From positions 259,245-323,244 of the forward strand of contig OY762964.1 in NCBI GenBank assembly GCA_963667035.1: 64,000 nt of DNA, written 5' to 3'. The notes beneath the pieces were generated by a model, which did no database searches, had not been told where the DNA came from, and saw only the letters and a program-made list of their open reading frames with translations. Of this stretch, positions 3,715-36,779 are shown one piece after another; the first letter of the stretch is position 1; each line of letters begins with the position of its first letter. This DNA is from Candidatus Cloacimonadales bacterium. Its GTDB lineage: Bacteria > Cloacimonadota > Cloacimonadia > Cloacimonadales > JAFGVF01. The position numbers and the translations under genes were made by a program.

Positions 3715-3850
3715 AGTATATTCGGACTATTTGGAGCATTTTAGCTTATAAAGCTTTTAGCACTGACAAATATATAATAATCACAAAATAGTTGACAGAC
3801 GCACTAATAGAATTCGATTTTAGAAAACACAATCTTAAAGAGGAGTCGAA

Positions 3851-4924: not shown

Positions 4925-6171
4925 GGATATTAATAAAGAATGCATTGTTTAATGGAGAGAAAAAAGATTTCTTTATTGATGGAAAGTATATAACGAGAAT
5001 TGATACAGCTCTCAATGAACAAGCTGATGTGGTCATTGATGCTACTGACAAAGCAGTATTACCTCCCTACATAAATGCTCATACACATGCCGCTATGACT
5101 TTACTGAGGGGATATGCTGATGACATGGATTTAATGGATTGGCTACAGAATAAAATCTGGCCGATTGAAGCAAAACTGACTGAAGAAGATGTGTATATCG
5201 GTACCAAACTTGCTTGCTTAGAGATGATAAAAACAGGAACTGCATATTTTATAGATATGTACTGGCATCTTCCCGGAATTTTTAAAGCAGTAGAAGAGAT
5301 GGGATTAAAAGCTCTATTGGCAGGTGTGATTATTGATATGTTTGATGATGTGCAAGCTAATGAACTTATTCGGAAGAATACTCGTCTCTATGAATATCTC
5401 AAATGGACGGATAGGATTAAATTCTGCTTAGGACCCCACTCGATATATACAGTTTCGGAGAAAAGCCTTAAATGGGTACGAAATTTTGCTTATGAGAACA
5501 ATATTCCTATTACTATTCACGTCTCTGAGACTGAGTATGAAGTAGAGCAGTGCCGGGAGAAAACCGGACTAAGACCGATTGAGTATCTTGAGAGTTTGAA
5601 TTTCTTGGGACCTGATGTGATAATTGCTCACGGTATTCACCTTAATGATTCTGAAATAGGAATACTTAGTAAGCATAAGACCATTGTAGCTCATAATCCT
5701 GTTTCAAACATGAAATTATGCTCCGGAACTATGCCTTTTCAAAAACTTATAGATAATGATATTGAAGTAGTATTAGGGACAGACGGGTGCTCTTCAAACA
5801 ACAATCTTAATATGGCTGAAGAGATGAAAGTGATGGCATTGATTCATAAAAGTGAAAGCGGTAATACTGAGCTGGCGTCAGCTAATGATGTATATGAAAT
5901 TGCAACAAATAACCGAGTAAAATCATTATTCCCGGAAACAGGATGCCTGGAAGTTGGAAAGAGAGCAGATCTCATTTTGGTTGATCTAAATCATTATCAA
6001 TTGCAACCTAATCATAATCTTATTTCTAACCTTGTATATTCAGGAACAGGTGACGTTGTCGATACAATGATTGTTGATGGGAACATACTTATGCTGAATA
6101 GAGTTGTTTATGGGGAAGAGGAGATTAGAATGCAGGTTAAAGAAGCCGTTAAAAATATCCTTAAAAGATAA
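4921..6171 (+). CDS. mtaD: 5-methylthioadenosine/S-adenosylhomocysteine deaminase (amidohydrolase superfamily)
   Basis: INAHTHAAMTLLRGYADDMDLMDWLQNKIWPIE metal-binding HxH region, later HVSE and GTDG motifs. ATGA overlap with the upstream gene. Confidence 0.8.
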   Translation: MRILIKNALFNGEKKDFFIDGKYITRIDTALNEQADVVIDATDKAVLPPYINAHTHAAMTLLRGYADDMDLMDWLQNKIWPIEAKLTEEDVYIGTKLACLEMIKTGTAYFIDMYWHLPGIFKAVEEMGLKALLAGVIIDMFDDVQANELIRKNTRLYEYLKWTDRIKFCLGPHSIYTVSEKSLKWVRNFAYENNIPITIHVSETEYEVEQCREKTGLRPIEYLESLNFLGPDVIIAHGIHLNDSEIGILSKHKTIVAHNPVSNMKLCSGTMPFQKLIDNDIEVVLGTDGCSSNNNLNMAEEMKVMALIHKSESGNTELASANDVYEIATNNRVKSLFPETGCLEVGKRADLILVDLNHYQLQPNHNLISNLVYSGTGDVVDTMIVDGNILMLNRVVYGEEEIRMQVKEAVKNILKR

Positions 6172-6193
6172 ATAATATTATAGTTTTAATTCC

Positions 6194-6228
6194 AGACCGA
6201 TGTTCTATCATCGGTCTTTTCTTTTTTA
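6194..6228 (+). terminator. rho-independent terminator of mtaD
   Basis: Stem AGACCGATG / CATCGGTCT followed by TTTTCTTTTTT. Confidence 0.7.
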
Positions 6229-6233
6229 TTGCT

Positions 6234-6395
6234 GTTTCATTCCTCTATCACAATTCATAATTCTCTCTGCCCATTTCCTTCCTACTTTCGAGACAGTCTC
6301 TTATCAATTTTAATAGGAGACCCTCAAGAGACTCGCAGGAATTGAACTACTTTTCCATAATTATTATGATAGAGCAATGAAATTATAATGAAACA
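6234..6395. repeat. intergenic nested-palindrome element (copy E1) lying between two convergent terminators
   Basis: 5' arm GTTTCATTCCTCTATCA (6234-6250) is complementary to TGATAGAGCAATGAAA (6367-6382), with a second AATGAAAC at 6388-6395. GAGAC occurs at 6290, 6317 and 6328 (the last two 11 nt apart) and inverted GTCTC at 6296. The 15-mer CCCATTTCCTTCCTA (6270-6284) is the exact reverse complement of 62471-62485. Confidence 0.5.
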
Positions 6396-6444
6396 CAAGA
6401 AGAAATCTGAAAGACTTCCCAAGTTATATGGACAGTTAAGAAGG

Positions 6445-6478
6445 TGCAAAAAAAGCCGGAGTAAAAACTCCGGCTTTC
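6445..6478 (-). terminator. rho-independent terminator of the 6515-8992 lipoprotein gene
   Basis: Stem AGCCGGAG / CTCCGGCT, followed on the minus strand by a T7 run. Confidence 0.65.
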
Positions 6479-6514
6479 AATATATTACTTATTATCTACT
6501 AAAAACTATCAATA

Positions 6515-8992
6515 TTAGTTTTCAATGTTATCATTTGTTAATGACTCGTAAATAGCATTAATAAGTTGGAATACAGGTTTAGTTGTATCGAACTCAAGTT
6601 CTACTGCATCAGGATCATCATTAGTATCTATCTGACTTTCCATATATGATAATGGGAATCCAAATACATATGCACAACCTTCAGTAAGAACATCTGCTTT
6701 AAATGCAACTGACTGCAGGTTATATTGTTCAAATTCATCTGGAGTTGGAGGTCTATTATCATCATACACTGATTTACAACCGAACTTAGCAACTGAGAAT
6801 GCAGTATGCTCAGCCATTGGGAAGTAAGTAATAGGTCCAAGTCCTTCGAATCTATCAACATAAGTACTGAAAGCAATATCTTCATTAACTTCTAGGTTAA
6901 CTGTAGTATCAGGAAGTAATTGGTCAGAAATAAACGCTTTAATGAAGTAAGGGTTCGCAGCAGCGTTAGTAGTAACAGATGCTGTGTATAGGTCTATAGG
7001 AAATTCAATTGAGTTTTCGAAACCAAACATATTTCTAAAGAAAGTTTTTTCTTCAGTGAAAGAGTTTCTAATTGCAGAATCTATATTTGCTCCACCGCTA
7101 ATAAGAATATTGCCACCTGTATGCATATAAAGGTTTAAACCATCATTCTCATCAACAAGTGCATTCTCTTCTCCGGGTGAGTCAGAATGATAAACAACCA
7201 GTTTGTATTTATTCAAATCTGTTGGAGAAATACGTCTTCCAATGTAATCCACATTATTCTCAAGAGATAATAAATCAAGATTATCAATTCTTGATACATT
7301 GCTGAAAGCAGTGTTATAGAATTCATCAGTGAATGCTTCAGGACTTAAGAACGCAGCTACCGGATGATCATCATCAATAATGATAACACCGTCTTTTTCG
7401 ATAGCCGGTATAGGGTCTTCTATTAAGAATTCAATAATTGCCGGAGTTTTATCAAATTCGCCTTGTAAGTCAACAGCTCTTACTTCAAATTTATGATATC
7501 CACTTTCAATACCAGAGATAACAATACTCTGTGCAATGCTGTGGTCAGCAGGAACTCTTAACCAGCTTTCTCCTGCATAAGCACCTGACTCATCAACTAT
7601 CTTGCGATCAGCTAATGGTGGATAATCATAAGCAGTACCATCTAATCTAAGGTCATAGTATTCAACGGAAGAGAAATAGTTTTCGTTTGTATCTTCATCC
7701 AAGAGAATATTAAGGGCACTATCATAAGGATTATCGGTAACAATTTCTTCGGAAGTCGCTTCATTTCTATAACCGAATTGACCATGGTAGCCCCAACGTA
7801 ACCAGATTTTTAAATCACTACTCCCTAAGCAGGAATAGTAACCGTCTTTGTTCTTGAACATTGCTGTTGCATAACTTCCGTCTGTTACAGGAGGGTCTTC
7901 TTCCAATTCTTTATAAAGATAATCGGTAAAATGGTTTCTACCTAAAGCATAAGTTCTTTCTTTGTAAATAATTGTTTCTGCATGATAGCCTTCTTTAACA
8001 GCAAAGCGAATGATTTTATCATCAGATTGAATTCCTGCCATATCTACAGAACGAGCAATAATTTCTGTATAAGAAGTTTGTAATGAGTTCACAAAGTCTG
8101 AAGAAATAGCCGGTGTTGTATATTTAGTAAGAAGGAATTCAGAAACATTTTCTCTATTACCATCTGTTTTTGTGTTATACCAAGTATTGTCAGCCGGTAA
8201 AGTTTGAATAACTTCACGAGTTGAAGCATCTCTTTTTAAAACTTTAAACAGATAATAATCTGCTTCAGCTTCAATGAAAGGATCACTATCGGCAATACTG
8301 AAATCAAGAATAATACCTGTTCCAACACTTGAGAGTTCTCTGGCATCAAATGGGTCAGGATCTTCTATTGCTCCCTTAGCAAGTTTTAAAAGACATTCAG
8401 GTTTCTCTGATTTTGCTTTAAACTTTCTGCTAGCAAGATTTGAAATTGATCCTCTATCATCAATACAGATAACTTCGAGAGTAGTAATTCTCTCTATAGG
8501 ATTTCCATCTGCGTCTGATGAAGGTAAGTTAATAGTAAGATATTTCTGATCAGACCAGATTGTCTTACTCTCTTTTGGAGCTTCAGCCAATGAAGTTTCT
8601 TGTAGAGCACCTTCTTTGAAATGCAAAACCCAACCACCACCGTAAAGCTCATTAACATCTTTAGGTACAATTGTATTTTCCATATCAATTACTGAATTAC
8701 CAGGAGTGCTGATAGGTACATTGTTTTCATCCAGTACACGATATGCATATGATGTTACTGTACCGTCTTTATCATCGGCATGCCAGTAAACTCTTTGTCT
8801 GGAATATATTACCAAACTATCGGGATACTGCTCATTATCGACTGATACATCAGTTCCTTCATAAGATGTGATTTCGATTGTAGGTGCTTGGTTAGTATCC
8901 TTATCTCCTTCTAAACCACATCCGTAAAAAAGAAAAGAAACTACTAATGTCAAAAGCAACATAGTAACCAATTTGTTACCTGCTTTCATCAT
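6515..8992 (-). CDS. large hypothetical lipoprotein
   Basis: Start moved to the ATGATG at 8992, preceded by GGGAGG. Lipobox ...VVSFLFYGCG. The 9118 start would overlap folD by 26 nt. No recognisable catalytic motif and no T9SS C-terminal domain. Confidence 0.7.
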   Translation of the reverse strand: MMKAGNKLVTMLLLTLVVSFLFYGCGLEGDKDTNQAPTIEITSYEGTDVSVDNEQYPDSLVIYSRQRVYWHADDKDGTVTSYAYRVLDENNVPISTPGNSVIDMENTIVPKDVNELYGGGWVLHFKEGALQETSLAEAPKESKTIWSDQKYLTINLPSSDADGNPIERITTLEVICIDDRGSISNLASRKFKAKSEKPECLLKLAKGAIEDPDPFDARELSSVGTGIILDFSIADSDPFIEAEADYYLFKVLKRDASTREVIQTLPADNTWYNTKTDGNRENVSEFLLTKYTTPAISSDFVNSLQTSYTEIIARSVDMAGIQSDDKIIRFAVKEGYHAETIIYKERTYALGRNHFTDYLYKELEEDPPVTDGSYATAMFKNKDGYYSCLGSSDLKIWLRWGYHGQFGYRNEATSEEIVTDNPYDSALNILLDEDTNENYFSSVEYYDLRLDGTAYDYPPLADRKIVDESGAYAGESWLRVPADHSIAQSIVISGIESGYHKFEVRAVDLQGEFDKTPAIIEFLIEDPIPAIEKDGVIIIDDDHPVAAFLSPEAFTDEFYNTAFSNVSRIDNLDLLSLENNVDYIGRRISPTDLNKYKLVVYHSDSPGEENALVDENDGLNLYMHTGGNILISGGANIDSAIRNSFTEEKTFFRNMFGFENSIEFPIDLYTASVTTNAAANPYFIKAFISDQLLPDTTVNLEVNEDIAFSTYVDRFEGLGPITYFPMAEHTAFSVAKFGCKSVYDDNRPPTPDEFEQYNLQSVAFKADVLTEGCAYVFGFPLSYMESQIDTNDDPDAVELEFDTTKPVFQLINAIYESLTNDNIEN

Positions 8993-9092
8993 AATTTTCC
9001 TCCCATATTTATCATCTTCGCTAAATTTATACTTAGGGATATTACCTTTATTTAATCTTTCTTTGATTAAGTCAATAATTTTTTTGTTGCCA

Positions 9093-9953
9093 CTAAACAT
9101 GATTAATACCTGATGCAATAACTACATTGTTGAGTAGTTTGTAAGTTGTCAATGAACCTATACCTCCAGGTACCGGAGTTATAGCTTTAGCCTTGTCATA
9201 ACACGCCTTATAATCAACATCGCCGACATATCTGCTATTACCTTCTTCATCAACTACTTCATTGATTCCAACATCAATAACTACAGCATTTTCTTTAATC
9301 ATATCTACAGACACAAAATTAGCTTTACCTATTGCAGCTATAAGTATATCTGCTTGAGTAGTGATACTTGGTAAATCCTTTGTTCTACTATGACAAACAG
9401 TGACAGTTGCATTTCCTGTAACATTCTTCCTTAAAAAAAGATTTGCTAATGGTTTTCCGACAATATTACTACGTCCGATAATCACTACATGTTTCCCGTT
9501 TGTAGAAATATTATTTGCTTCGAGCATCTCTAATACTGCAGCAGGAGTACAAGGTATAAAAGGAGATTCTTCCATAAACAATCCACCTAAGTTCTGAAGA
9601 TGAAATCCATCAACATCTTTACTAGGGGAGATAGCTTTGACAACTGCATCCTCTTCGATATGCTTAGGTAGAGGTTTTTGTAACATAATCCCGTCACAGA
9701 GAGTCGATTCATTTAATCTATAAATAATCTCTATGAGCTCTCTTTGTGACATCTCAGTTGAATGAGATAAGATATTTACTTCAATACCTATCTTCTTCCC
9801 ATTCTTAGCAAGATTCTGCACATAATAAGAGGCTGCAGGATCATTGCCAAGTTGAATAATACTAAGTGAAGGAGGTCTCTCCATTTCACTTATACGAGTT
9901 TGTAACTCATTGTATCTTTCTTTAACAATAGGCTTTGCTCTAAGTTCTTTCAT
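9093..9953 (-). CDS. folD: bifunctional methylenetetrahydrofolate dehydrogenase / methenyltetrahydrofolate cyclohydrolase
   Basis: Full-length FolD pattern (..PASYYVQN.., VIIGRSNIVGKP, PVPGGIGSLT). The ATG at 9953 lies 1 nt after the rny stop; the 9965 start in the track is a TTG. Confidence 0.9.
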   Translation of the reverse strand: MKELRAKPIVKERYNELQTRISEMERPPSLSIIQLGNDPAASYYVQNLAKNGKKIGIEVNILSHSTEMSQRELIEIIYRLNESTLCDGIMLQKPLPKHIEEDAVVKAISPSKDVDGFHLQNLGGLFMEESPFIPCTPAAVLEMLEANNISTNGKHVVIIGRSNIVGKPLANLFLRKNVTGNATVTVCHSRTKDLPSITTQADILIAAIGKANFVSVDMIKENAVVIDVGINEVVDEEGNSRYVGDVDYKACYDKAKAITPVPGGIGSLTTYKLLNNVVIASGINHV

Positions 9954-9954
9954 A

Positions 9955-11514
9955 TTATTTTGCAACAGCTACCTGTCTGGTTTCTCTGATAACGGTTACT
10001 TTTATCTGTCCGGGATATTGAACATCCTTTTCAATCTTTTCTGCAATGTCATTTGCTATGAAAGGAGTCTTTGTATCGTCAATCTCAGAAGGCTCAACGA
10101 TAATCCTTAACTCTCTACCTGCTTGAATAGCGTAGGTTTTAGTTACACCTTCAACTGAACTTGCAATTTCCTCAAGTTGTTCAAGACGTTTCATATAACT
10201 TTCAAGCATTTCTCTTCTGGCTCCGGGACGAGCACCTGATATAGCATCACATGCTTGTACAAGCGGTGCATAAACGGAGATAGGCTCAACATCTTCGTGA
10301 TGAGCTTCAACAGCATTGATAATAATCTTACTTTCACCGTTCTTTCTAACAATATTAGCACCGATTGCTGCATGAGAACCTTCAAATTCATGGTCAACAG
10401 CTTTCCCGATATCATGCAAAAGAGCAGCTCTTCTAGCTATTTGTTGATTTAATCCAAGCTCTGCAGCCATTATTCCACACATCCAAGCAGCTTCAATTGA
10501 GTGCTGAAGGATATTCTGACCATAACTGGTTCTATAGTGGAGCCTACCCAGCAGTTTAATTAGGTTTGGAGACAAATTGTGTATGTTTGCTTCGAGAGAT
10601 GCTTTCTCACCAATTTTAACAAGATTCTCATCCATCTCTTTTGCAGTTTTTTCAATAACTTCTTCTATTCTTCCCGGATGAATTCTACCATCCATGATAA
10701 GCTTCTCAAGAGCTAGTCTTGCTATTTCTCTACGTACAGGATCGAAGCAAGACAGTACAACAGCTTCAGGAGTATCATCAATGATTAAGTCAACACCGGA
10801 TGCTTTCTCGAAAGCTCTAATGTTTCTTCCTTCACGTCCGATAATTCTACCTTTCATTTCATCTCCTGGTAGAGAAACTACTGCAACAGTACTTTCGGAT
10901 ACATGGTCAACAGCCATTCTTTGAATTGATAAAGAAAGTATTTCCGCAGTTTTTTTGGCGGCGTCATTCTTAGTTTGGTTAATCATTTCACGAACTTCAC
11001 CGGAGATTCTCTTTTTAACTCCATCAATAAGTTCTGATTTTAACTGACCTGAAGCTTCTTCTCTTGTCATTCCGGCAATTTCAATGAGCTTTGTTTCTTG
11101 CTCTTGAATGAGCCCATCAAGTTGCTTATCTCTTTTACCAATATTTAACTCCAACTCTTTGAGTTGGCCTTCTTGTTTTTGGAGATTACTTTCTTTTTTG
11201 TCTAGAGACTCGATTCTCTTCTCAAGTTTTGTTACACGTTCATTATAAGTGTTTTCTTGAGTTCTAAGCTCTTTCTGTCTGTCTTTGATTTCATCTTCGT
11301 AAACTTTCTTGGTTTTGTACCAATCTTCTTTAGCTTCGAGAATTGTTTCTTTTCGTATGGAAGCTTTCTCATTGTTAGCTTCTTCAATTATTTTATCTGC
11401 CTGGTCTTTAGCGGTAAAGATTATAGCCTTTGAACGCTGTTTGAGGATAATAAAAAGAATACCTGCCCCGATTAGTCCTATAACTAATCCGATTAGAATA
11501 TAAACAATATTCAT
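9955..11514 (-). CDS. rny: ribonuclease Y
   Basis: N-terminal TM helix, long coiled coil, KH domain ([15 protein letters not shown]) and HD domain (LLHDIGKA). Start set at MNIVYILIG (11514) because the upstream 29 codons overlap a structured non-coding segment. Confidence 0.9.
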
Positions 11515-11537
11515 CGTTTTCCCTTTTTGAATATAAA

Positions 11538-11710
11538 CTCTACCCGCTGTACCGTGTTTGTTTGACTGTTGTGAACCTTTTACAAGGTGGGTAGCGTACA
11601 AATTAGCTTTATTATTCCGGATATAACCGGCCTTAATGCCACTAGAAGCTTGCTTCCCTATTTAACATTAGTTCAAAAGCAACACAAGGTCACGAATACC
11701 GCAGGCAGAT
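11538..11710 (-). ncRNA. candidate 6S RNA (ssrS-like) or other structured RNA in the zapA-rny gap
   Basis: About 173 nt starting right after the zapA stop. The 5' end UCUGCCUGCGGUAUUCGUG pairs with the 3' end CACGGUACAGCGGGUAGA (about 17 bp). This stem includes G-U pairs that exist only on the minus-strand transcript. Interior contains an asymmetric loop and an apical CCGG-UUAUAU-CCGG hairpin. zapA-ssrS adjacency is classical in E. coli. Confidence 0.45.
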
Positions 11711-11711
11711 G

Positions 11712-11981
11712 TTAAATATTATCGTTTAATAAGGAATCCGTAGCATTAAACAAAGATAATTCAGATCGAACAGATTCTAATTCCCCTCTCAATTTGAGAA
11801 ATTCCTCAGTAAGAATCATTGAAAATAGTACTAATAACTTATCTCTATCAAGCTCATTAAACTTATTGGCAAGCTTGTTTAATTCAGAATTTATATATAG
11901 TTCTAATTGTCTCGTATTCTCGGCAGAGTCGGTTTTCATCTGGTATCTTCGACCGAAGATGTCAACGCTTATTGATTCCAT
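11712..11981 (-). CDS. zapA: cell division protein ZapA
   Basis: 89 aa. The N-terminus ISVDIFGRRYQMKTDSAENTRQLELYINSELNKL follows the ZapA pattern (xVxIxGxxYxl...). Confidence 0.75.
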   Translation of the reverse strand: MESISVDIFGRRYQMKTDSAENTRQLELYINSELNKLANKFNELDRDKLLVLFSMILTEEFLKLRGELESVRSELSLFNATDSLLNDNI

Positions 11982-11990
11982 AGTTTATTT

Positions 11991-12356
11991 CTATACTTCG
12001 TCTAATAACGGTAAAATATCTTGTAGTTTCTCAGAAATACTATTAGCTTTATTGTTAGCTTCTAGCAATGTATTTCCAAGGTTTTCTTTTTCTGCAGTTA
12101 TAGTTGCAACCTTATTTTCAAGGTCGGCTTTAAGAGTTTCGAGTTCGGTAATTCTTTCATTTGCAATTTCAAGTTCAAGAATCTTTTCATCTCTAGTATT
12201 TTCAATTGAACTCAGTTGATTTTTTAATTCTTCATGCTCATCTCTCAAAGCGGCATGTTTTTCTTTTAATGATTTAAAGCCATCTATTAACCTCTGAATC
12301 TGTTGCCCTAAAGCACTGTCATTCTGAGGGGTAGTCTGTTGTTGGTTGTCAAACAT
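11991..12356 (-). CDS. coiled-coil protein, ZapB-like (function uncertain)
   Basis: 121 aa, almost entirely heptad-repeat coiled coil, directly upstream of zapA and 5 nt downstream of pheT. Confidence 0.45.
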   Translation of the reverse strand: MFDNQQQTTPQNDSALGQQIQRLIDGFKSLKEKHAALRDEHEELKNQLSSIENTRDEKILELEIANERITELETLKADLENKVATITAEKENLGNTLLEANNKANSISEKLQDILPLLDEV

Positions 12357-12361
12357 ATATC

Positions 12362-14764
12362 TTACCTCATTTTGATATTAAATTGCTGTTCTAACAGCTT
12401 AAGAATTTTTTTGAAAAGGTTCTCGATTAAGTTATCTGTCAATGTTTTTTTCTCCGACCCAAAGATTATTGAGAAGGTTAAACTTCGACTTCCGTACTCG
12501 ATACCTTTTCCTTTATATTCATCAATGAGTTTTACTTCCTTGATAATTGAGGGATTAACAGATTTAATCGCTTTCTCTATATTCTCAATAGTGATTTCTA
12601 CTGATGATAGGAAAGATAAATCTCTTCTAATTAGCGGGAACTTTGAAGGTTCAACAAACTCCCTCGGGCTTGTTGAAGAGTTCGTCAGCATTTCTGTAAG
12701 ATTAAAATCAAAAACAAATATGTCCTGCTTAAAATCAAGAATATTGATTCCGAAATTTTCTACCACTTGAGGGTTTAACTTCCCTATCCTACCTATAACC
12801 ACATCTCCTTTGGAGATCTCCAAAGACATGTTACCGACAAAATACGGTTCTTCACAAGCTTGGAACTTAGTATCTTGAATCTTCAAAGCATCAATAATCT
12901 CTTCGGCAATTCCTTTAACATCAAAGAAATCTATGTTATTGGTTCCGTCTTGCCAATATTGATTTGTGCGATTACCGGTCATAAGACCTGATAACCGGTA
13001 GTTTTCATTGTATTGGTTATCAATATTATGGTATACTTTGTTTATTTCAAAAGTTTTAATATCCTGAGAGCCTCTATTCATATTGTAAAGAGCAATTTTA
13101 ATTTGGTCAGTTATCAGATTGGTTCTCAAGATTGATGTGTCTGTCCCTTGTGGATTGATAAGTTTCACAGCTTTTCTTAGATAAGCATCATCGGACAGCT
13201 TCAGTTTATCCAAATCTTCAGGATTAGCAAAGGACAGTGTAACGGTATCGTAGAAACGATTATTTATTAATAAGTCCTGAAGTTTTCGCTTGGCATTAAA
13301 CAGTGCATGATTCATTATTCTTTGTGGTTTTAAACGTTGCTCAACGTTATTATAACCATGAAGTCGAATAATCTCTTCAATCAGGTCAATTTCTCTGGTT
13401 AAATCATTACGATAAGAAGGAATTTCAAAGAATAAAGTATTGTTCTTATCTTCTTGGAATTTAAGTCCTAGATTCTGTAAATAGGCAATAATAGTGCTGT
13501 TATCAAGATTAATGGTGAGTACTTTTTTGACTCTCTCAGGTCTTAATCCAACAATTTGAGGAGTTAGCTTAGCGCTTCCTTTATCAAGACTTCCTTTAAC
13601 AATTTTACCACCGGATAACTCTGCTATAAGTTCACAAGTCCTTTCACTTATAACATCACAAGTTTCCGGACTTAAACCTCTTTCAAATCTATATGAGGAA
13701 TCGGTAAACACTTTATGTTTATAAGAACTTTTCCTAACTGTAGGATACTCAAAGCAAGCAGCCTCAACAACAATATTAACAGTCTTATCGTGAATACTCT
13801 TTTCATTTCCTCCGATAATTCCGGCTAATGCAATCGGACCGTCACTGTCTGCAATGACAAGGTCATCGTTAGTAAGATAATAAGTCTCATTATTCAGGGC
13901 GGTAAGCTTTTCACCTTCGACAGCATTTCTAATAATTATCTTTTTATCAGTTAAAAGATCATAATCAAAGGCATGTATAGGATGACCCCATTCCATCATC
14001 ACATAGTTTGTAGCATCAACTATGTTATTGATAGGTCTCATTCCTATAGCTGTCAAATAACGTTTTAACCAGTCCGGAGATTCTTTAATCTCAACGTTTT
14101 TAATGATTCTAGCTTTATATCGAGGGCATTTATCAGTAGCCTCAATATCCAGAGTTAACAAATCTTCAATTTTCTCTTCATCTTCTTGAAATACAGGAGT
14201 TTGAAGTTTTAGGGGGATGTTCAATAGGGCGGATAAATCACGAGCGACTCCAACCATTCCAAGAAGATCAGGTCTGTTAGGAGTAATTTCCACTTCATAG
14301 ACAGTGTCTTCTAACTCGTAATAAGTAGCTAAATCAGTTCCGATAGGGGCATCAGCAGGAAGCTCAATAATTCCGTCATGATTATCGGATAATTCCAGTT
14401 CTTTCTCAGAACAAATCATGCCTAAAGATTGATAGCCTCGAAGTTTTGCTTTCTTAATTTTAAACTCTCCAAGAATAGTGCCAACAGGAGCAAAAGCTAC
14501 TTTCAATCCTGTTCTAACATTTGGAGCACCACAAACAACCTGGACGGTCTCTGAACCGTCATTTACTTGGCATAAGCTTAAATGGTCAGAGTCAGGCATC
14601 TTTTCGCAATTTAACACTTCTGCAATCTTAATTTGCTTTTGTAAATTACCACTCTTTTCAACTGCTTCAACTTCGATTCCGGCAAAAGTTAATCTATCTT
14701 CAAGCTCTTCCGGAGTGAGCTTCAAATCTATGTATTGTTTTAGCCAATTATAACTAATCCGCAT
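12362..14764 (-). CDS. pheT: phenylalanine--tRNA ligase beta subunit
   Basis: 800 aa. MRISYNWLKQYIDL N-terminus, tRNA-binding, B3/4, B5 and FDX-ACB regions readable. Confidence 0.95.
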   Translation of the reverse strand: MRISYNWLKQYIDLKLTPEELEDRLTFAGIEVEAVEKSGNLQKQIKIAEVLNCEKMPDSDHLSLCQVNDGSETVQVVCGAPNVRTGLKVAFAPVGTILGEFKIKKAKLRGYQSLGMICSEKELELSDNHDGIIELPADAPIGTDLATYYELEDTVYEVEITPNRPDLLGMVGVARDLSALLNIPLKLQTPVFQEDEEKIEDLLTLDIEATDKCPRYKARIIKNVEIKESPDWLKRYLTAIGMRPINNIVDATNYVMMEWGHPIHAFDYDLLTDKKIIIRNAVEGEKLTALNNETYYLTNDDLVIADSDGPIALAGIIGGNEKSIHDKTVNIVVEAACFEYPTVRKSSYKHKVFTDSSYRFERGLSPETCDVISERTCELIAELSGGKIVKGSLDKGSAKLTPQIVGLRPERVKKVLTINLDNSTIIAYLQNLGLKFQEDKNNTLFFEIPSYRNDLTREIDLIEEIIRLHGYNNVEQRLKPQRIMNHALFNAKRKLQDLLINNRFYDTVTLSFANPEDLDKLKLSDDAYLRKAVKLINPQGTDTSILRTNLITDQIKIALYNMNRGSQDIKTFEINKVYHNIDNQYNENYRLSGLMTGNRTNQYWQDGTNNIDFFDVKGIAEEIIDALKIQDTKFQACEEPYFVGNMSLEISKGDVVIGRIGKLNPQVVENFGINILDFKQDIFVFDFNLTEMLTNSSTSPREFVEPSKFPLIRRDLSFLSSVEITIENIEKAIKSVNPSIIKEVKLIDEYKGKGIEYGSRSLTFSIIFGSEKKTLTDNLIENLFKKILKLLEQQFNIKMR

Positions 14765-17591: not shown

Positions 17592-17628
17592 AAAAGCAAA
17601 AAAGGCTGTTGAATATCTCAACAACCTT
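17592..17628 (-). terminator. rho-independent terminator of the Nif3-family gene
   Basis: Minus strand AAGGUUGUUGA-GAUAU-UCAACAGCCUU followed by UUUUUUGCUUUU. One pair is G-U on the minus strand but C-A on the plus strand. Confidence 0.65.
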
Positions 17629-17689
17629 TAAAAATCTTTGTCGTGATTAACGATAGATAATACAGAAACTAATCTTAATCAGTTACGAA

Positions 17690-20489: not shown

Positions 20490-20634
20490 ATCAACTCCCT
20501 GAATTATTATAGTAACTCCTATAAACCCTTCTACAAACATGGATAGGCGAAAAGAGATTTATGACAAGCTTTTTATCCATAGATTTATCTAAGAACTTGG
20601 GAGCTATTCTGTTGTCTATTTGAATAGCAAAATT

Positions 20635-23600
20635 CTATTGAAGGATTAATAAATCAATCTCTGCCGGAGCCATGAGCTTGATGAATTGATTATAGCTCCT
20701 AATAAATGAGTTTTGCCAATTTATATCTTGGAATTGCTTAAAGCTTCTGATAGGAATGTGTAATCCTACTTTGATGTTCCTTGAAGTTTTTTTATAGTAG
20801 ATGTTCGAAAGCTTGTTTTGTATCTTTAATTTGATATAGTTACCTAACAAGTCTCTAGAGAATGGATAATCAAGGTTGAGGGTGAATTCAATCTTTATAC
20901 TATTATTGATTAATCCTATTTCAAGCAGTTGCTTTCTAGAGGGTTTAAGTCTTTCCGTGTTCAAGTAAAGTTTCGCTATTGTGGGATTATCAAGATATTG
21001 AAGTTTTAGAGCTTCATTAGATTTTGACTGTACGAAACGCTTAAAGCTATGGAACTCCTCAAAACCAACAGGTAGTTTCCTTTGATAATTGTTTAATACG
21101 TTTTCTATGATAGGGATATAGTCTTCATTAAGCACCATAGTGCGGTCGGAATAGCTATATTCTAACGGTGATTCTATCAGGTAGCTGGTGAAGTATCTGT
21201 TGCTGACGCTTATAAACTTCTGAGGAGTACGAAAAATCCCATGCTCTTCAAGAACAGAATTGATATTATTGAATGTCATCTCGTCTTCCTTTCTATGCAT
21301 TAAAAGCATAGTTTGAAGGAATACATCAAAGCTGGAGATACGAGACTCTTCTAAAATCATTCGTAACAAGTTTCCGGTGAGCGGTTGGATGTTTAAACTA
21401 CTGACGTGTAAGTTATAGGAAATTATCTCAGGAAGAACCTCTCGCAATTTAGCTGAGTAGATAGCCTTGTAGTGATACGGAGCTGTTTTACCGAGTGAGA
21501 ATTTAATCCCTTTATTGTTTAGAACTTCTTCACTAACTCCTCTTAAATGAATTGTCAGACGTTTAGGAGAAACAGTTATCCTAATAGTTTTTTGAACAGC
21601 TTTGAATAATGGGAAAGCTTTGATTGTGTAGAAATCTATGTGCGTACGATTCTCATCGGTAACATAACGTAAGAACCAACCACGAAAGAAGATTCTTTCA
21701 CTTATTTCTTTGTATAACTTATCATAAGACATTACAAAATGTCTTAAACTATCTTTTTGGGCATCCGTAAATGTGGAAATATGATGTTTCAAACTCAAGC
21801 TCTTGATTTGTAACAAATCTAATACAAACTGTTGAAGAGTGACAATACTCTCTTCTACTTCATTCTTGTTAAAGGCTTTTCTTGCTTGAATCAGTATATA
21901 CTTCCCTTCATCTTTGTTACACTTGACGAATGGGAAGTCGGAGAATTTATCTTTATAACTATAGAAGCCATAATCATCAATTGCAAGTAGGTCCTTAGTC
22001 ATTTTACTGAATCCGGAAGTACTAACTAAAATACACAATTGCTTTTTATCATTCAAACAGAAATAAGCTTTCTTAAAAGGATAATTAAAATTATAGGGTA
22101 GGTCTCCATGGATTCTGTATATAGCAAGATTACCTTCAATAGAAATATCCGTGTTGGCAGAAAACAATCCCATAACTTTATCTGTAGCCTGTTTGCATAA
22201 GAAGAGAGGAATAACGGATTTAAGCATCCATCTGATGGAACGTCCTAATAATCCTTTGAACTTATCTGCATTGATATTGGGAGCGAAAGCATCTATCTTA
22301 GAATAATCAAAAGCATTGAGGTGATGTTTTAATGCTATTCTTTCAATGGGATATTCAGATTCATGGAAGTCACCTCTTAGATAGATGTTAACTTCATTTT
22401 TCCAATATTGAATTATAGCAAAAGGACAACTCAAGTCAGAAATGGCAAACATATCAAAGCCTTCACGATACGCCTTTTCTATTAGAGAAATTCCCATTCT
22501 GTCAGCAGTTTCAAGTATTAGACTCTTGATTACTTCAACTTTGACCTCTCTTTCCATTTCCTCGATATTGTGTCCCTTCAAAGCAGGAACATCTTTATAC
22601 TTTAACTTAATTAACTGAAGTTGTAAATTCTCTTCTTCGGCAAGAACAAGATCACTCCAAGCAGTTTGTAACAGTTGTCTGAACTCATAGATCGGGTTGT
22701 TGCGAACGAGAACCTTGTAACCACCATGGAATGTGCTATATACCTTGCCTTTGTAGTCATAATAGACTAATTCCCTAAATCTCATGTATTGAATACCTGC
22801 ACTCTTGAGAACAAGTTCGAAAGTTATTTCCTCATTACTTCTTGGATTGAGATTTCCATGCCAGGTTTCACTACCGTTCTTGAGTTCTACTCCTTCCGGT
22901 AAGAATACGGTAAAATCTACATCTTTAGCTACTCCTAAACCGGAATTTCTGAGACTGACAGTGAGATTTATTGTTTCACCTATTCTTGCTTCATCCTGTT
23001 TATGACCGGAGCTGTCTAGTCCGTAGTCTAAACTAACCGACATGTTAACAACAGGGATAATGCTAAATACGTCAGAGGGGTCAATTACTGTGCAGAATAG
23101 AGCTTCGGAATACTCAGTATTAGTCTTTATACCATCTTCATCCGGCATAGGTTTTACGTTATTGCCTCTAACGTCTGTATAGCAATAGCTTAACCTTAAA
23201 GGTGGAAACTCATATTGCCCGCTTCGCTTGGGACTTATCTCGACTCTTGTTTTCCAAGTTCCGTTAGGCTCTAAATCAATATCCTCAAAGGCGATTGTAT
23301 GATAGTCATCACTTGTGTTTTTTAAGATAAGTGTACGACCTTTATGAAAGTCAAAGTAAACAGGTAACTTAAGTTCGAAGTTCACATCTTCTGCGACTGT
23401 ATCTCCATTGTTCTTGATGCTAATATCCAGATAGGTTTTATCTTCTTTAGTAATGAAGTCATCTATCAGCTTATACTTTACATGAATTGACGGAGCTACT
23501 TCTTGTAGAAGAGAGTCATCTTCAATAAGTAATCTTAAGTTGAAGAAATCTCTGGATATTACATCAAATCCGGAGTCAAAGTCGTTTACTTCATCTCTAG

Positions 23601-24384
23601 CTATAGTAATAATCTCTCTATTATTCATGTATTGAATGATACCTTTCTTCCTGTTCACGGTTTTGTAATAAGTATAGCCGAAGCTCCTTAAATCGTTTCC
23701 GCTTTTCGGTAGATTGATAAACATTGGGTAGAGAGACAGAAATCTTCCTGTTTTAATTTCCATTAAGTAGGGTTTGAACAGTTCTAGGGCATTATTGGAA
23801 TGAGATATTGTGGCTATGGTTATTGAACCGTTAAGGTAAGTCTTTACCCTGTAACTAATCCCCCCGGTTGTTGATAGAGTCTCTATCGGAACTACAATCT
23901 TATATCTTCTAAGAAAGTCACAACGCTCCAGCATTGCAGTTATAATTTCTTGTCTTCTATTCAGTTCCTTATTCAGCTCCGATTCATCTAAGATAAGCCC
24001 GCTATGAGCATCTTGGTTTCTAGCTGAAATATAGGAACTGACAAAATTCTCCCAATCTGAATCCATATCATGATAAAGATTATAAATTTCAGGGACAAAG
24101 CTATTCTCTCCCAGTATCTCACTAATTGTTCTAGCAATCATATTCCATCTGCCAAGTGATATCTGAGAAAGGTCAATGCCCTTTGGAACAGGTAGTTTTT
24201 CAGAAGATGAGTTTAGACTCTTCTTGTGGAGTAATGAGTAATTACTAATAGAGATAATAGAGAGGAATCTCAGCAATGTTTCTACACATAGTCTTTGATA
24301 ATCTCTTCTTTGGATAGAATTTTCAAGGCTTTGTTTATATGGTAGATAAACAATTGCAGGATAATCAGAGAAGTCGTTATACAT
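20635..24384 (-). CDS. 1249-aa hypothetical protein: N-terminal HEPN-like four-helix region (R122-N-Q-D-A-H127), two CARDB-like Ig domains, large uncharacterised C-terminal half; no signal peptide
   Basis: Uninterrupted 3.75-kb ORF. ISARNQDAHSG is encoded at 24030-24001. DISIKNNGDTVAEDVNFELKLP and INLTVSLRNSGLGVAKDVDFTVFLPEGV resemble CARDB repeats. The ATG lies 1 nt after the stop of the upstream HTH gene, with no SD of its own. Confidence 0.8.
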   Translation of the reverse strand: MYNDFSDYPAIVYLPYKQSLENSIQRRDYQRLCVETLLRFLSIISISNYSLLHKKSLNSSSEKLPVPKGIDLSQISLGRWNMIARTISEILGENSFVPEIYNLYHDMDSDWENFVSSYISARNQDAHSGLILDESELNKELNRRQEIITAMLERCDFLRRYKIVVPIETLSTTGGISYRVKTYLNGSITIATISHSNNALELFKPYLMEIKTGRFLSLYPMFINLPKSGNDLRSFGYTYYKTVNRKKGIIQYMNNREIITIARDEVNDFDSGFDVISRDFFNLRLLIEDDSLLQEVAPSIHVKYKLIDDFITKEDKTYLDISIKNNGDTVAEDVNFELKLPVYFDFHKGRTLILKNTSDDYHTIAFEDIDLEPNGTWKTRVEISPKRSGQYEFPPLRLSYCYTDVRGNNVKPMPDEDGIKTNTEYSEALFCTVIDPSDVFSIIPVVNMSVSLDYGLDSSGHKQDEARIGETINLTVSLRNSGLGVAKDVDFTVFLPEGVELKNGSETWHGNLNPRSNEEITFELVLKSAGIQYMRFRELVYYDYKGKVYSTFHGGYKVLVRNNPIYEFRQLLQTAWSDLVLAEEENLQLQLIKLKYKDVPALKGHNIEEMEREVKVEVIKSLILETADRMGISLIEKAYREGFDMFAISDLSCPFAIIQYWKNEVNIYLRGDFHESEYPIERIALKHHLNAFDYSKIDAFAPNINADKFKGLLGRSIRWMLKSVIPLFLCKQATDKVMGLFSANTDISIEGNLAIYRIHGDLPYNFNYPFKKAYFCLNDKKQLCILVSTSGFSKMTKDLLAIDDYGFYSYKDKFSDFPFVKCNKDEGKYILIQARKAFNKNEVEESIVTLQQFVLDLLQIKSLSLKHHISTFTDAQKDSLRHFVMSYDKLYKEISERIFFRGWFLRYVTDENRTHIDFYTIKAFPLFKAVQKTIRITVSPKRLTIHLRGVSEEVLNNKGIKFSLGKTAPYHYKAIYSAKLREVLPEIISYNLHVSSLNIQPLTGNLLRMILEESRISSFDVFLQTMLLMHRKEDEMTFNNINSVLEEHGIFRTPQKFISVSNRYFTSYLIESPLEYSYSDRTMVLNEDYIPIIENVLNNYQRKLPVGFEEFHSFKRFVQSKSNEALKLQYLDNPTIAKLYLNTERLKPSRKQLLEIGLINNSIKIEFTLNLDYPFSRDLLGNYIKLKIQNKLSNIYYKKTSRNIKVGLHIPIRSFKQFQDINWQNSFIRSYNQFIKLMAPAEIDLLILQ

Positions 24385-24385
24385 T

Positions 24386-25012
24386 TTAATCTGTATTAAG
24401 TACTGAATTCTTATCTTTAAATATCAGTTCCGAAGCATAATCATTATCATCAGCAAGTGCATCACTTAAACTAACTTCTTTCTGAGGAGTCTCAGTTTCC
24501 TGACTTTCTTTAAGCTTCTTCATTAACTCTCTTTGAGTATCTTCCGGAGTTTCCTCGTTTTCAGTATCACTGTTAGCAGGGGGGGGGGCAGGCTTTTCAA
24601 TGTTAACAAATCTCTTCTTAAATGGAGAACCAAGACTTCCTTTTTGATATAGTCTAGCAAGTGAGAAGGCAATAATTATAACTAGTATACTTATTCCGAT
24701 TATGTATAGAAGATTAAAGGAGATAAGAATCTTGTTTTCTTTTATATTTTCTTGAGGTTTAAAATTATGATTATTTGAATGGGGATAAGTATTATCGAAA
24801 GTATAGAGAATCTCTTTCTCATTAGCTTTGAGAGCTTTTCCATAGTTGAAAACAACAGCTCTGGCTATACCGTAATCATGAAGAATCTGAAATCTATTGG
24901 ATTCAATGTCTTCAAGATAATCAGTTCTAATCCTTGTAATATTATTAACATCATCAATTGAGAGTCCGTTAGCTTCTCTAAGCTGCTTCAGAAATGTTCC
25001 GATTTTCTCCAT
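24386..25012 (-). CDS. Xre-type HTH membrane protein (RodZ-like architecture, lacks the RodZ C-terminal domain)
   Basis: N-terminal HTH (FLKQLREANGLSIDDVNNITRIRTDYLEDIE), one TM helix (ILISFNLLYIIGISILVIIIAFSL), then a short acidic/proline tail. Confidence 0.65.
   Translation of the reverse strand: MEKIGTFLKQLREANGLSIDDVNNITRIRTDYLEDIESNRFQILHDYGIARAVVFNYGKALKANEKEILYTFDNTYPHSNNHNFKPQENIKENKILISFNLLYIIGISILVIIIAFSLARLYQKGSLGSPFKKRFVNIEKPAPPPANSDTENEETPEDTQRELMKKLKESQETETPQKEVSLSDALADDNDYASELIFKDKNSVLNTD
24579..24588. repeat. G10 (C10 on the coding strand) homopolymer inside the HTH-membrane gene
   Basis: Read directly: gttagcaGGGGGGGGGGcaggc. It encodes the PPP of KPAPPPANS. I noticed no comparable G/C run elsewhere in the window. 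Confidence 0.95.
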
Positions 25013-29257: not shown

Positions 29258-29285
29258 ATTATACTTGATAGAGCTTATATGTCAA
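29258..29285 (-). promoter_or_regulatory. sigma70-consensus-like promoter of the endonuclease gene
   Basis: Minus strand TTGACA-16 nt-TATAAT, with the -10 about 29 nt upstream of the ATG and a GGGAG RBS in between. Confidence 0.5.
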
Positions 29286-34637: not shown

Positions 34638-36779
34638 TTATTTAATGATAATTGCCTTTGTTGATGTTGATTGGGTAGGGGAGTTCAGTTTAACAAAATA
34701 AATACCGGAACTAAGTTTTGCTGACCATTTAATCTCACTGATTCCCTTGTTAATGTTACCTTTAAAGATTTTGTCTACAAGTTGTCCTTTTACGTTGTAA
34801 ACTCCAATCGTTGCTTCGTTTATCGAATTATCAGTTTTTACTTTAAGAGTTGATAAACTAATCATAGGATTAGGATAGATACTCATGGATATCTGAGGAA
34901 TTACAGATTGAATGTTTTCATCATTATCGACACCTGCGAACAAATGGAATCCAAGATGAGAAAAGTCATCTGACTCATAAACATCCCACTCGCCATTATT
35001 TAGAGGGTCTGCTTGTCCTGCATGAGGAGTACTAACATGTAGTTTTCTTACTAATGTAACATTCTGAGCAAAGTTTGTGTCTCCTGAAATTCCTATCCTA
35101 TCAAGTTCTTCTCCGTTCTTTAGCAACCTGATTTGATCGTTTCCATTAAAATTGATTACTCCGTTGTTTGTAGCATCAGCTAAATATACCAAATCCTGAC
35201 TTGCTTGAGAATTTGCTATAACTATAACATCATTATGACCTAGAGTTCCGGATAAAATATATGTGTTACCGAATTCATCATTACCGTTAACATCTTTCTC
35301 AAGACTATATTGTGATAGGTCAATTGGCATTCCGGTTCCGTTATAAATCTCCAAAGCTTTGTTATAACTACTTCCTTCAACATACTCAGAGATTATTAGG
35401 TCTGTAGTAAAATACATAGAACCCGCTTCTGTTGTTACTGACATAATATTTGAATACTCGCCATATGTATTATTATGGAAAGCTCTTACTCTATAGTAGT
35501 ATGTGCTGGCAGGATATATGCCTGTAACTTCTATATGTTGATCATCAACTAGTAAGCCTTGATAACCGTTTACGTAAGTTGTAAAGGTATTATCGGTTGC
35601 AAGCTCGAATGAGTAAGAGTCAACTGTAGCTGATGATTGCCATTCTGCTCTAAAGCTATTGGATTCAACATTTATTGGGTTTAGGAGATTTATCTCAGGT
35701 AAGTCATTATCAATGATATTTAAGAGGAAAGTTGAAATAGGACCAGGTCCAGGATTGTTAGAACCGGTGAAATTTCGTAAACCGAATTGTATAGCTTCTG
35801 AACCTTCTACTAATGAATCATCGGTGATATCTATACTAATTGTCTGAGCTTCCTCTGAGTTTGCAGGGAAGACCACAACTTGAGGAGTAAAACCGTCTAC
35901 ATCAGAATTGTCACCGGATATGATATAGACTTCAACTGATGTTTGCTCATCTCCCGGATTAATTAGATTCAAGTTTACATTAATGCTACCATAACTCTCA
36001 GGAAGTGAGATTGAATTCATTGAAAATTGAATCACAGTGTTAGGAGAAGTTGAACCCCAAATATAATCAATATACTCAGGATGGTCAACAAATGGATTTC
36101 TGTTGTTTTGGTACCCCCAAATATCATCATTTCGTTGTTGCTCTGAAACATCTACGGGATCTAGAGCATTCCATTCCAATAGAGTATTCAGCATATCAAT
36201 TCCACCTCTAGTTAATGATTCATTGTATCTGACATTGAAATAAAGTAAAGCTCTTGCTAAGTTACCTTTATGTTGATCTGCAGGCTCGAAGCATGTTGTC
36301 CCATTGATATTAGCACCTCTTTTGCTAACATATCCGTTAGCTGAAGAATACGTGTTACCTACACTTGTAACATTATCAAATGGAAGGTTACCTCTTGATG
36401 AGTTAACAGTACTGTTTGACGGGAAAAGATGATGAATGTCAGCTTTTTTAGTAGTTGACTCACTTGAACCAAACCAGCTCTGAGCAAAAGTATGTTCACA
36501 GTTCAAATAAGTTTGATTTGGCATGGTACCTTGAGGTACACTATAATCTTGTCCTGTATATACACATCTGACGGTATTGTTGTGATTATCAATATATCCA
36601 AACATCTCATCTTTTGCACCATCGTAGCTTGTGTTGTGATTAGTTGAAATTATAGAATGCAATCCATTTCTTAGAGCTTCTCCCGTAAGCCCTGAAACAC
36701 TGTCATAATAGCCATTAGGCTCGGCAATTAATAATGTAAGACTAACTACCATTAGTAATAAAATGAAGATCTTTTTCAT
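34638..36779 (-). CDS. secreted endonuclease I family nuclease with FN3, lamin-tail-like and T9SS C-terminal domains
   Basis: CEHTFAQSW and DIHHLFPSNSTVNSSRGNLPF (Endonuclease_1 motifs). FN3-like STYYYRVRAF. C-terminus GIYFVKLNSPTQSTSTKAIIIK. Confidence 0.8.
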   Translation of the reverse strand: MKKIFILLLMVVSLTLLIAEPNGYYDSVSGLTGEALRNGLHSIISTNHNTSYDGAKDEMFGYIDNHNNTVRCVYTGQDYSVPQGTMPNQTYLNCEHTFAQSWFGSSESTTKKADIHHLFPSNSTVNSSRGNLPFDNVTSVGNTYSSANGYVSKRGANINGTTCFEPADQHKGNLARALLYFNVRYNESLTRGGIDMLNTLLEWNALDPVDVSEQQRNDDIWGYQNNRNPFVDHPEYIDYIWGSTSPNTVIQFSMNSISLPESYGSINVNLNLINPGDEQTSVEVYIISGDNSDVDGFTPQVVVFPANSEEAQTISIDITDDSLVEGSEAIQFGLRNFTGSNNPGPGPISTFLLNIIDNDLPEINLLNPINVESNSFRAEWQSSATVDSYSFELATDNTFTTYVNGYQGLLVDDQHIEVTGIYPASTYYYRVRAFHNNTYGEYSNIMSVTTEAGSMYFTTDLIISEYVEGSSYNKALEIYNGTGMPIDLSQYSLEKDVNGNDEFGNTYILSGTLGHNDVIVIANSQASQDLVYLADATNNGVINFNGNDQIRLLKNGEELDRIGISGDTNFAQNVTLVRKLHVSTPHAGQADPLNNGEWDVYESDDFSHLGFHLFAGVDNDENIQSVIPQISMSIYPNPMISLSTLKVKTDNSINEATIGVYNVKGQLVDKIFKGNINKGISEIKWSAKLSSGIYFVKLNSPTQSTSTKAIIIK

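Follow-up and report, generated by a model that had tools for sequence, protein, structure and literature searches.

A 64,000-nucleotide stretch of the genome of Candidatus Cloacimonadales bacterium (assembly GCA_963667035.1, contig OY762964.1, positions 259,245 to 323,244 of the forward strand; hereafter the window) encodes a giant protein of 1249 residues, named 'hypothetical protein' by NCBI, directly behind a gene for a helix-turn-helix (HTH) membrane protein. The organism belongs to the Cloacimonadota, an uncultivated phylum common in anaerobic digesters. We propose that the giant is a sensor-gated HEPN ribonuclease (RNase) with effector and sensor in one cytoplasmic chain, possibly domesticated in this lineage, and we give this reading a probability of roughly 0.45. 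HEPN RNases do the killing or arresting in Cas13, in Csm6, in many abortive-infection and toxin-antitoxin systems and in some STAND sensors. The evidence that carries the proposal is an invariant motif in a helical N-terminal domain, together with a set of relatives that bear the same domain on architectures typical of conflict systems.

According to this proposal residues 1-160 would form a HEPN endoribonuclease with an intact RN-x2-AH catalytic motif, always accompanied by a beta-rich domain, and two CARDB/DUF11-type immunoglobulin-like (Ig) domains would space the parts or offer surfaces for interaction. The final ~690 residues would be tandem alpha+beta protein-binding modules of a secretion-chaperone/YbjN-like kind, with a predicted sensing role. 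Binding of a protein ligand, foreign or endogenous, by this C-terminal half would bring about dimerisation or oligomerisation, two HEPN domains would then make up a composite active site, and RNA cleavage would lead to arrest of translation or growth. The active site of HEPN RNases needs two HEPN domains. Since the giant has a single one, the natural model is that it is activated by dimerising or oligomerising. In this Cloacimonadales lineage the gene would have become fixed in a housekeeping operon behind the RodZ-like HTH gene, whose product may tether or restrain the giant.

The N-terminal domain

An AlphaFold2 model of residues 1-300 (predicted local distance difference test, pLDDT, 80.5; predicted TM-score, pTM, 0.86) contains helices at 10-19, 26-58, 77-94, 98-105, 111-127 and 134-160. 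Four of these (26-58, 77-94, 111-127 and 134-160) form the core, and 98-105 is a short inserted helix. The preliminary description of this DNA had read the first 160 residues as helical, with the motif RNQDAH at 122-127 ending the third helix, and both points were borne out: the motif closes the third core helix, just before the loop to helix 134-160. Judged on helix order rather than on packing in three dimensions, this map agrees with the published description of HEPN (Anantharaman et al. 2013, PMC3710099), a four-helix up-down bundle in which helices 2 and 3 are often separated by an insert.

The giant has three copies of the bare Rx4-6H pattern, which is not beyond chance, and therefore only conservation gives the motif meaning. 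The copy at residue 122 is the only one conserved: R122-N-x-D-A-H127 is invariant in six full-length homologues, down to 28% identity. Across 61 aligned modules R122 and N123 are each present in all 61 and H127 in 57, alongside G78 (61/61), W80 (58/61), R85 (54/61) and E35 (51/61). The unit of conservation extends past the helices, as the HEPN-like and beta-rich domains travel together as a module of ~270 residues that recurs in about 60 proteins (hmmsearch envelopes). When 37 diverse modules were scanned with Pfam, the four most-matched families were all HEPN, namely HEPN_RiboL-PSP (PF18735; 12 modules, best E 1e-6), HEPN_Swt1 (PF18731; 6), Apea (PF18739; 3) and MAE_28990 (PF18737; 3). PADLOC likewise gave weak matches, mostly to CARF_HEPN, Csx1 and RTasHEPN.

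Several results weigh against a HEPN assignment. Every HEPN match among the relatives lies below its curated threshold, the best being that of P0134, a protein with a receiver domain and the module (28.2 bits against a gathering threshold of 28.4), and the window giant itself gave no match to a HEPN model even at E<=10. Foldseek searches of PDB, run with the 300-residue model and not with the isolated domain, reached a best E of 0.09 with no HEPN structure in the top 50; a search of BFVD with the N-terminal model found nothing significant, and a profile of the 37 modules had zero matches among PDB sequences. Moreover, each AlphaFold2 model was fed by six sequences only. Foldseek against PDB and BFVD also found no fold match for the beta-rich domain.

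These results leave room for the alternative that RN-x2-AH lies in a helical domain unrelated to HEPN, where it would serve binding or a different chemistry, and the ease with which the bare pattern arises is in its favour, as are the missing match to a solved HEPN structure and the giant's want of a supra-threshold profile match. We consider it improbable, since weak matches in two independent libraries (Pfam and PADLOC) converge largely on HEPN-containing models, the motif sits where a HEPN helix map would have it, and an N-terminal helix carries a conserved acidic residue, E35. The suggestion of a HEPN fold thus stands on motif conservation, helix order and the relatives' weak matches, and falls short on a profile match of its own and on a structural match. 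We conclude that the domain is very probably a HEPN domain of the RiboL-PSP/Swt1-like kind, the best-supported assignment, for which the profile evidence is transitive and sub-threshold. We infer that it would act as an RNase.

Ig domains, C-terminal half and the wider family

Profile matches confirm the earlier recognition of CARDB/DUF11-type Ig segments in the giant. TIGR01451, a DUF11-type repeat of NCBIfam, matched residues 465-507 at 28.1 bits (cut-off 24), and Pfam DUF11 matched 463-517 at E 7e-5 (23.6 bits against a gathering threshold of 24.6); weak Pfam matches to BatD (356-409) and NPCBM_assoc (314-341) were also seen. One homologue (L008:3278-7258) exceeds the gathering thresholds of CARDB, BatD and DUF11. 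Apart from weak DUF11 and TIGR01451 matches, searches of the whole giant against Pfam, NCBIfam, PADLOC and PDB sequences named nothing, and no match to any defence-system component was found in PADLOC-DB.

CARDB/DUF11 Ig domains are normally extracytoplasmic, whereas no signal peptide, transmembrane (TM) segment or type IX secretion system (T9SS) tail (Por_Secre_tail) was found in the giant. As the preliminary description had said of signal peptide and TM helix, Kyte-Doolittle and Pfam analyses give no sign of either; the maximum 19-residue hydropathy is 1.66 and falls within the Ig strand region. The Por_Secre_tail sorting domain does occur at the C-terminus of three other large window proteins (Table 1), of which one combines it with Endonuclease I, lamin-tail and fn3 domains and one, of 1815 residues, with ASH/Cep192-like Ig domains.

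The surface-typical Ig domains and the several T9SS cargo proteins encoded nearby would suit an exported surface protein, or a HEPN toxin delivered by non-classical secretion. We regard such export as extremely unlikely: besides the missing signal peptide, TM segment and sorting tail, polymorphic toxin domains are C-terminal and the giant's HEPN-like domain is N-terminal, and the same HEPN-Ig arrangement is found in P0108, a cytoplasmic STAND-TPR protein.

The preliminary description could place nothing in the last ~650 residues. There is now a confident AlphaFold2 model of this region (residues 561-1249; pLDDT 83.7, pTM 0.66), in which a helical linker is followed by about four alpha+beta modules (~600-740, 741-866, 867-1000 and 1106-1249), each laid out as helix, 4-7-stranded sheet and helix, with a helical, possibly winged-helix-like insert at ~1001-1105; the fold matches, however, are only weak. 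Foldseek returned nothing at E<1e-3. Its best results were ARPC2 of Arp2/3 (E 4e-3, low TM-score) and CapZ; YbjN, AmyR and Spa15 (probability 0.98-1.0, TMt 0.43-0.57, E 0.04-0.3); and the type III secretion system (T3SS) chaperones SycH, ExsC, CesT, Spa15 and SicP. The ARPC2, CapZ, YbjN and T3SS chaperone matches have TM-scores of 0.1-0.2 over the query and ~0.5 per module, which tells against a firm assignment. The top matches are variants of one alpha+beta 'secretion-chaperone-like' protein-binding fold, and the model thus points weakly, as a lead only, to a fold of secretion-chaperone/YbjN/ARPC2 type. No Walker A motif was found in this half. Internal sequence repeats were considered and rejected, as none were detectable. 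We propose that the C-terminal half is a sensor or scaffold.

An exhaustive profile search of 1.84 billion representatives, a library that carries neither taxonomy nor genomic context, gave 306 matches at E<=1e-3 and, at the stricter E<=1e-30, 38 clusters. Three layers can be told apart: alignment along the full length is seen for about a dozen clusters, ~20 proteins of ~1200-1600 residues have only residues 1-~650 in common with the giant, and many proteins have only the first ~250-270. Residues 1-650 are common to about 30 clusters, and the C-terminal 690 residues were found only in the first layer, the clade P0001-P0014. Word-indexed protein searches returned 6, 6 and 3 proteins, counts that are lower bounds, a known paralogue having been missed. 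Pattern scans found only 4 loci in GTDB genomes, no relatives in viral contigs and none in metagenome contigs, the last whether the alignment of the giant or that of the HTH protein was used.

The nearest relatives lie in metagenome-assembled genomes of Cloacimonadales/Cloacimonadota. Homologues are 75% (locus L001), about 58-59% (L002) and 28-31% (four distant loci) identical to the giant. Gene context could be read at seven loci, perhaps four lineages. Two of these loci carry giant-family paralogues in tandem, 38-50% identical and arranged head-to-tail with 9-nucleotide (nt) spacers (L005:4890-12734, comprising 4890-8879 and 8889-12734; L008:145-7258, where the upstream copy is fragmented). 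A constant N-terminal half, variable C-terminal halves and tandem paralogues together fit the pattern expected of diversifying sensors.

The HEPN and beta-rich module serves as an N-terminal or internal cassette across a range of architectures. It opens a HEPN-Ig-AAA_16(STAND)-TPR protein of 2275 residues (P0108) and lies between ParA and STAND parts in P0130; in P0113 it is internal and is followed by a kinase and WD40, and in P0081 it accompanies a PCMT methyltransferase. Receiver domains precede it in P0134 and P0155, and HEAT repeats join it in P0071. At locus L010 (1431-3073) a TIR_2 gene lies directly upstream of the receiver-HEPN-module gene for P0155, overlapping it by 4 nt, and a further receiver gene comes before; this group resembles a small cassette for signalling or conflict. 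The module's partners are the company that effector domains keep in prokaryotic conflict and signalling systems, a general theme in earlier work (PMC7159879, PMC8195603).

Genomic setting and the RodZ-like neighbour

Both open reading frames (ORFs) and the junction between them lie exactly where the preliminary description had placed them (Table 1): the stop codon TAA of the HTH gene (24388-24386) and the ATG of the giant (24384) are separated by a single A. The start codon is backed by conservation of the homologues from residue 1, with M1, P9, P15 and Y16 invariant. As had also been noted, no GGAG-like Shine-Dalgarno motif was found upstream of this ATG. This counts for little, since inspection of upstream sequences showed no obvious motif of this kind at many predicted starts elsewhere in the window either. 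From the geometry, co-transcription and termination-reinitiation, and hence translational coupling of the giant to the HTH gene, are plausible.

The HTH protein has an HTH_25 domain at residues 8-68 (nt 24809-24991; Pfam E 2.8e-14), a single TM segment at ~95-119 (nt 24656-24730; Kyte-Doolittle 2.84) and an acidic, low-complexity tail of 85 residues. RodZ proteins are laid out as HTH_25, TM helix and an extracytoplasmic DUF4115 domain; the upstream protein shows the first two in the same order, but DUF4115 was not found and HTH_25 is its sole Pfam match. It also scored 45 bits, far below the 375-bit cut-off, with the NCBIfam model rodZ_Strepcoccus, which is Streptococcus-specific, and PADLOC gave only a generic HTH_VI match (E 4.5e-4). 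No mre genes are present in the examined neighbourhood, where the annotated genes include dap genes, queC and a thiD-like gene. Orthologues are 71% (L001) and 57% (L002) identical, the latter named 'helix-turn-helix domain-containing protein' by NCBI, and an exact look-up found no record of the window protein.

The HTH gene contains, 195 nt ahead of the giant's start codon, a C10 homopolymer, the sole G/C run of 7 or more in the 64-kb, 36%-GC window. Slippage by one nucleotide in either direction would cut the HTH protein to 162 or 146 residues, with the new stop 130-190 nt upstream of the ATG. Fusion of the HTH gene to the giant by frameshifting at this site was ruled out by early stops in both shifted frames, and the tract is absent from the HTH orthologues. 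It could be a slippage or phase-variation switch, or merely a homopolymer prone to assembly error.

We also consider a bolder form of the proposal, in which the giant belongs to a novel class of NTPase-less HEPN 'pattern-recognition' proteins whose ligand half is chaperone-like instead of repetitive, domesticated here as a membrane-proximal RNase checkpoint, with translation obligately coupled to the RodZ-like gene and slippage at C10 as an off-switch. Such a checkpoint would link the state of the cell envelope or morphogenesis to RNA cleavage. We hold this elaboration to be distinctly improbable.

The block queC-M20-dapB-dapF-HTH-giant is syntenic in three Cloacimonadota genomes (the window, L001 and L002), and the spacer between HTH and giant genes is 1-2 nt in all three (TAG-CA-ATG in L001, TAA-TT-ATG in L002). 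As the whole block is syntenic, the adjacency of the two genes could be mere inheritance. At the distant loci an HTH_25 gene stands beside the giant homologue in none of the three with upstream sequence (at the other, L003, the contig ends 95 nt upstream), and tblastn with the HTH protein found no match in any of the four, results that speak against the pairing. The expectation that the two genes are conserved neighbours therefore holds for the three syntenic genomes and fails at the distant loci; the pairing is a feature of one Cloacimonadota lineage and does not define the family. A physical or regulatory link, for instance membrane tethering or restraint of the RNase by the HTH protein, is possible.

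Other genes lie beside the distant homologues. Voltage-gated-type channel genes (Ion_trans, TrkA_N/RCK) flank them in two arrangements (L003:4611-8164; L005:1261-2061 and 3228-4880), with two Ig-less Ion_trans genes preceding the L005 paralogue pair, and small TM proteins are the neighbours at L008. Members of a second giant family of ~1360 residues, 43% identical to each other, adjoin the homologues at L004:1950-6035 and L005:12768-16841; they have a weak DHH-family match at the N-terminus (E 5e-4) and five or six C-terminal hydrophobic or TM segments, and are accompanied by a small conserved ORF (L004:6004-6411; L005:16953-17321; 36% identical). This second family was rejected as a partner, no homologue having been found in the window. 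A membrane-protein neighbour was the common theme of every context examined and was also rejected as evidence, such neighbours being common by chance. Some 9 kb downstream of the L005 giant-family cluster lies a PT-HINT and Ntox21 polymorphic-toxin fragment (L005:21949-22734).

The preliminary description had offered a RodZ-associated cytoskeletal factor as one possibility. On such a view the giant would work structurally alongside the RodZ-like protein and the MreB machinery, and its HEPN-like domain would do no more than bind RNA or protein. The 1-2 nt junction in three genomes, the presence of ARPC2 and CapZ among the best C-terminal matches, and a build of long tandem modules and Ig domains that suits a scaffold would all be accommodated. 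We nevertheless judge this very unlikely, as nothing positive speaks for it beyond adjacency and a fold-level resemblance. The pairing was not found at the four distant loci; ARPC2, CapZ, YbjN and the T3SS chaperones represent one generic alpha+beta fold, matched at the low query-wide TM-scores given above; an inert domain would have no need of invariant R, N and H; and the HTH protein is without the DUF4115 domain of RodZ.

The pair belongs to an 11.6-kb same-strand run in the order EndoNS, queC, M20 peptidase, dapB, dapF, HTH gene, giant, thiD-like kinase, HAD hydrolase and NIF3, with a perfect match to the sigma-70 consensus at its head and a terminator-like hairpin beyond its last gene; no terminator-like site was found between the giant and the thiD-like gene. 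Identities to L001 and L002 are 75/59% for the giant, 65/57% for dapF, 75/66% for dapB and 71/57% for the HTH gene. The giant thus diverges at its neighbours' rate, from which we conclude that its gene is genuine, under constraint and, in this lineage, passed on vertically.

This setting weighs against the sensor proposal. The giant sits inside a core biosynthetic operon, the 64-kb window contains no mobile element, defence gene or tRNA that we could find, and its housekeeping rate of evolution suits a gene with a domesticated function better than one in an arms race. The same facts, with synteny across three genomes and a single copy of the family in the window, favour a domesticated RNA-processing or quality-control nuclease, that is, an active HEPN enzyme with a routine, lineage-specific role that would be expressed along with the rodZ-like and dap genes and would sense no invader. 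The eukaryotic HEPN proteins Las1 and Swt1 have routine roles of this sort. HEPN domains have indeed been described as 'institutionalised' for core roles (PMC3710099). We hold this alternative to be possible but doubtful. The family is extremely rare and patchy (~38 clusters among the representatives searched), its distant members occupy quite different contexts and include tandem paralogues, and elsewhere the module is found in architectures characteristic of conflict systems (STAND, TIR-neighbour and kinase-WD40). The housekeeping context and slow evolution here favour domestication, and the wider family favours a conflict origin.

Further observations concern the surroundings of the pair. 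In the 75%-identical relative a PAP2 phosphatase gene (L001:9764-10522) lies between the giant and the thiD-like kinase, where the window has a 94-nt gap (20541-20634), so that gene order beyond the giant is not fixed. A 6S/SsrS RNA overlaps the 5' end of a mechanically called, TTG-initiated ORF (9955-11601); the real start codon of this ORF probably lies further downstream.

Table 1. Positions of the features discussed, numbered from the first nucleotide of the window
Feature	Positions	Strand	Basis or remark
HTH-TM gene, 208 aa	24386-25012	-	ORF call
C10 homopolymer (G10 on +), encodes PAPPPA	24579-24588	-	inside HTH gene
Stop-start junction TAA-A-ATG	24382-24388	-	1-nt spacer; upstream GGAG absent
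Giant ORF, 1249 aa, predicted cytoplasmic multidomain protein	20635-24384	-	ORF call
Helical HEPN-like domain, residues 1-160	23905-24384	-	AlphaFold2 and relatives' profile matches
R122-N-Q-D-A-H127, putative catalytic Rx4H motif	24004-24021	-	conservation
Beta-rich domain (strands 161-261) and helices 273-293, residues 161-300	23485-23904	-	AlphaFold2
Two Ig-like domains, CARDB/DUF11/BatD type, residues 301-560	22705-23484	-	profile matches
Helical linker and alpha+beta modules, residues 561-1249	20638-22704	-	AlphaFold2
Perfect sigma-70 consensus TTGACA-16-TATAAT	29258-29285	-	head of run; consensus match only
Terminator-like hairpin	17601-17629	-	3' of the run's last gene
6S/SsrS RNA	11537-11710	-	Rfam RF00013, 76.9 bits vs gathering score 46.4
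Large protein with C-terminal T9SS sorting domain	34638-36779	-	Por_Secre_tail
Large protein with C-terminal T9SS sorting domain	36923-39703	-	Por_Secre_tail
Large protein with C-terminal T9SS sorting domain	43519-48966	-	Por_Secre_tail
ORF, 867 aa	6515-9118	-	no Pfam match at E<=1e-4

Comparison with known systems

Earlier work already covers the HEPN superfamily, large sensors that carry HEPN effectors, and HTH proteins of the RodZ type. What appears to be undescribed in the libraries and literature searched is the HEPN, beta-rich and Ig cassette, the NTPase-less chaperone-like C-terminal array and the fixation of the gene behind a RodZ-like neighbour. In agreement with the preliminary description, no known system with the giant's architecture was found in libraries, public records or literature, and the literature searched describes neither RiboL-PSP-HEPN nor the architecture itself. 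The family would add an 'effector cassette' reused on several sensor chassis, an NTPase-less chassis with a chaperone-like tail that could be a new mode of protein-ligand recognition, and a case of a conflict-type protein fixed in a core operon, which bears on the route from conflict to housekeeping. Current ideas are not overturned; a known theme is extended by a concrete candidate.

Like Avs/NLR-like STAND proteins, the giant would combine an N-terminal HEPN effector with a large C-terminal region that varies between relatives, and P0108 is a true relative of the module with a HEPN-Ig-AAA_16-TPR layout. It differs in having no Walker A motif and no match to AAA/NACHT or another NTPase family, and in a tail of alpha+beta modules in place of TPR, WD40 or LRR repeats. 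NTPase-less effector-sensor proteins are established, among them Dsr1 and a HEPN protein of Streptomyces with the same sensor as Avs7 (PMC13581612). With these and Dsr2 the giant shares the plan of one polypeptide with an N-terminal enzymatic effector, a sensor of more than 600 residues and no NTPase switch, whereas no relation in sequence or fold was found for its sensor half, and its genomic context is that of housekeeping genes. The oyster immune expansion of HEPN-Ig-DED-TRADD-N-WD40 proteins (Kaur et al. 2021, PMC8195603) likewise places an N-terminal HEPN RNase before Ig repeats and then a sensor region; the resemblance is one of layout only, as this is a eukaryotic family with death-fold adaptors.

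The closest comparison is with the RiboL-PSP (PF18735), Swt1-like (PF18731) and MAE_28990-MAE_18760-like (PF18737) HEPN families. The members of the module all fall short of the curated thresholds, the window giant matches none of these families, and an obligatory HEPN, beta and Ig supermodule joined to a giant C-terminal half is present in no described family. However, the relatives of the module match best to these three, and the giant has in common with them the hhxxRN-x2-AH-G motif ending the third core helix and a helical bundle in which an insert separates helices 2 and 3. For MAE_18760 members, fusion with 'a novel beta rich domain' and a link to ParA have been reported (PMC3710099), features echoed by the beta-rich domain of the module and by the ParA-fused relative P0130.

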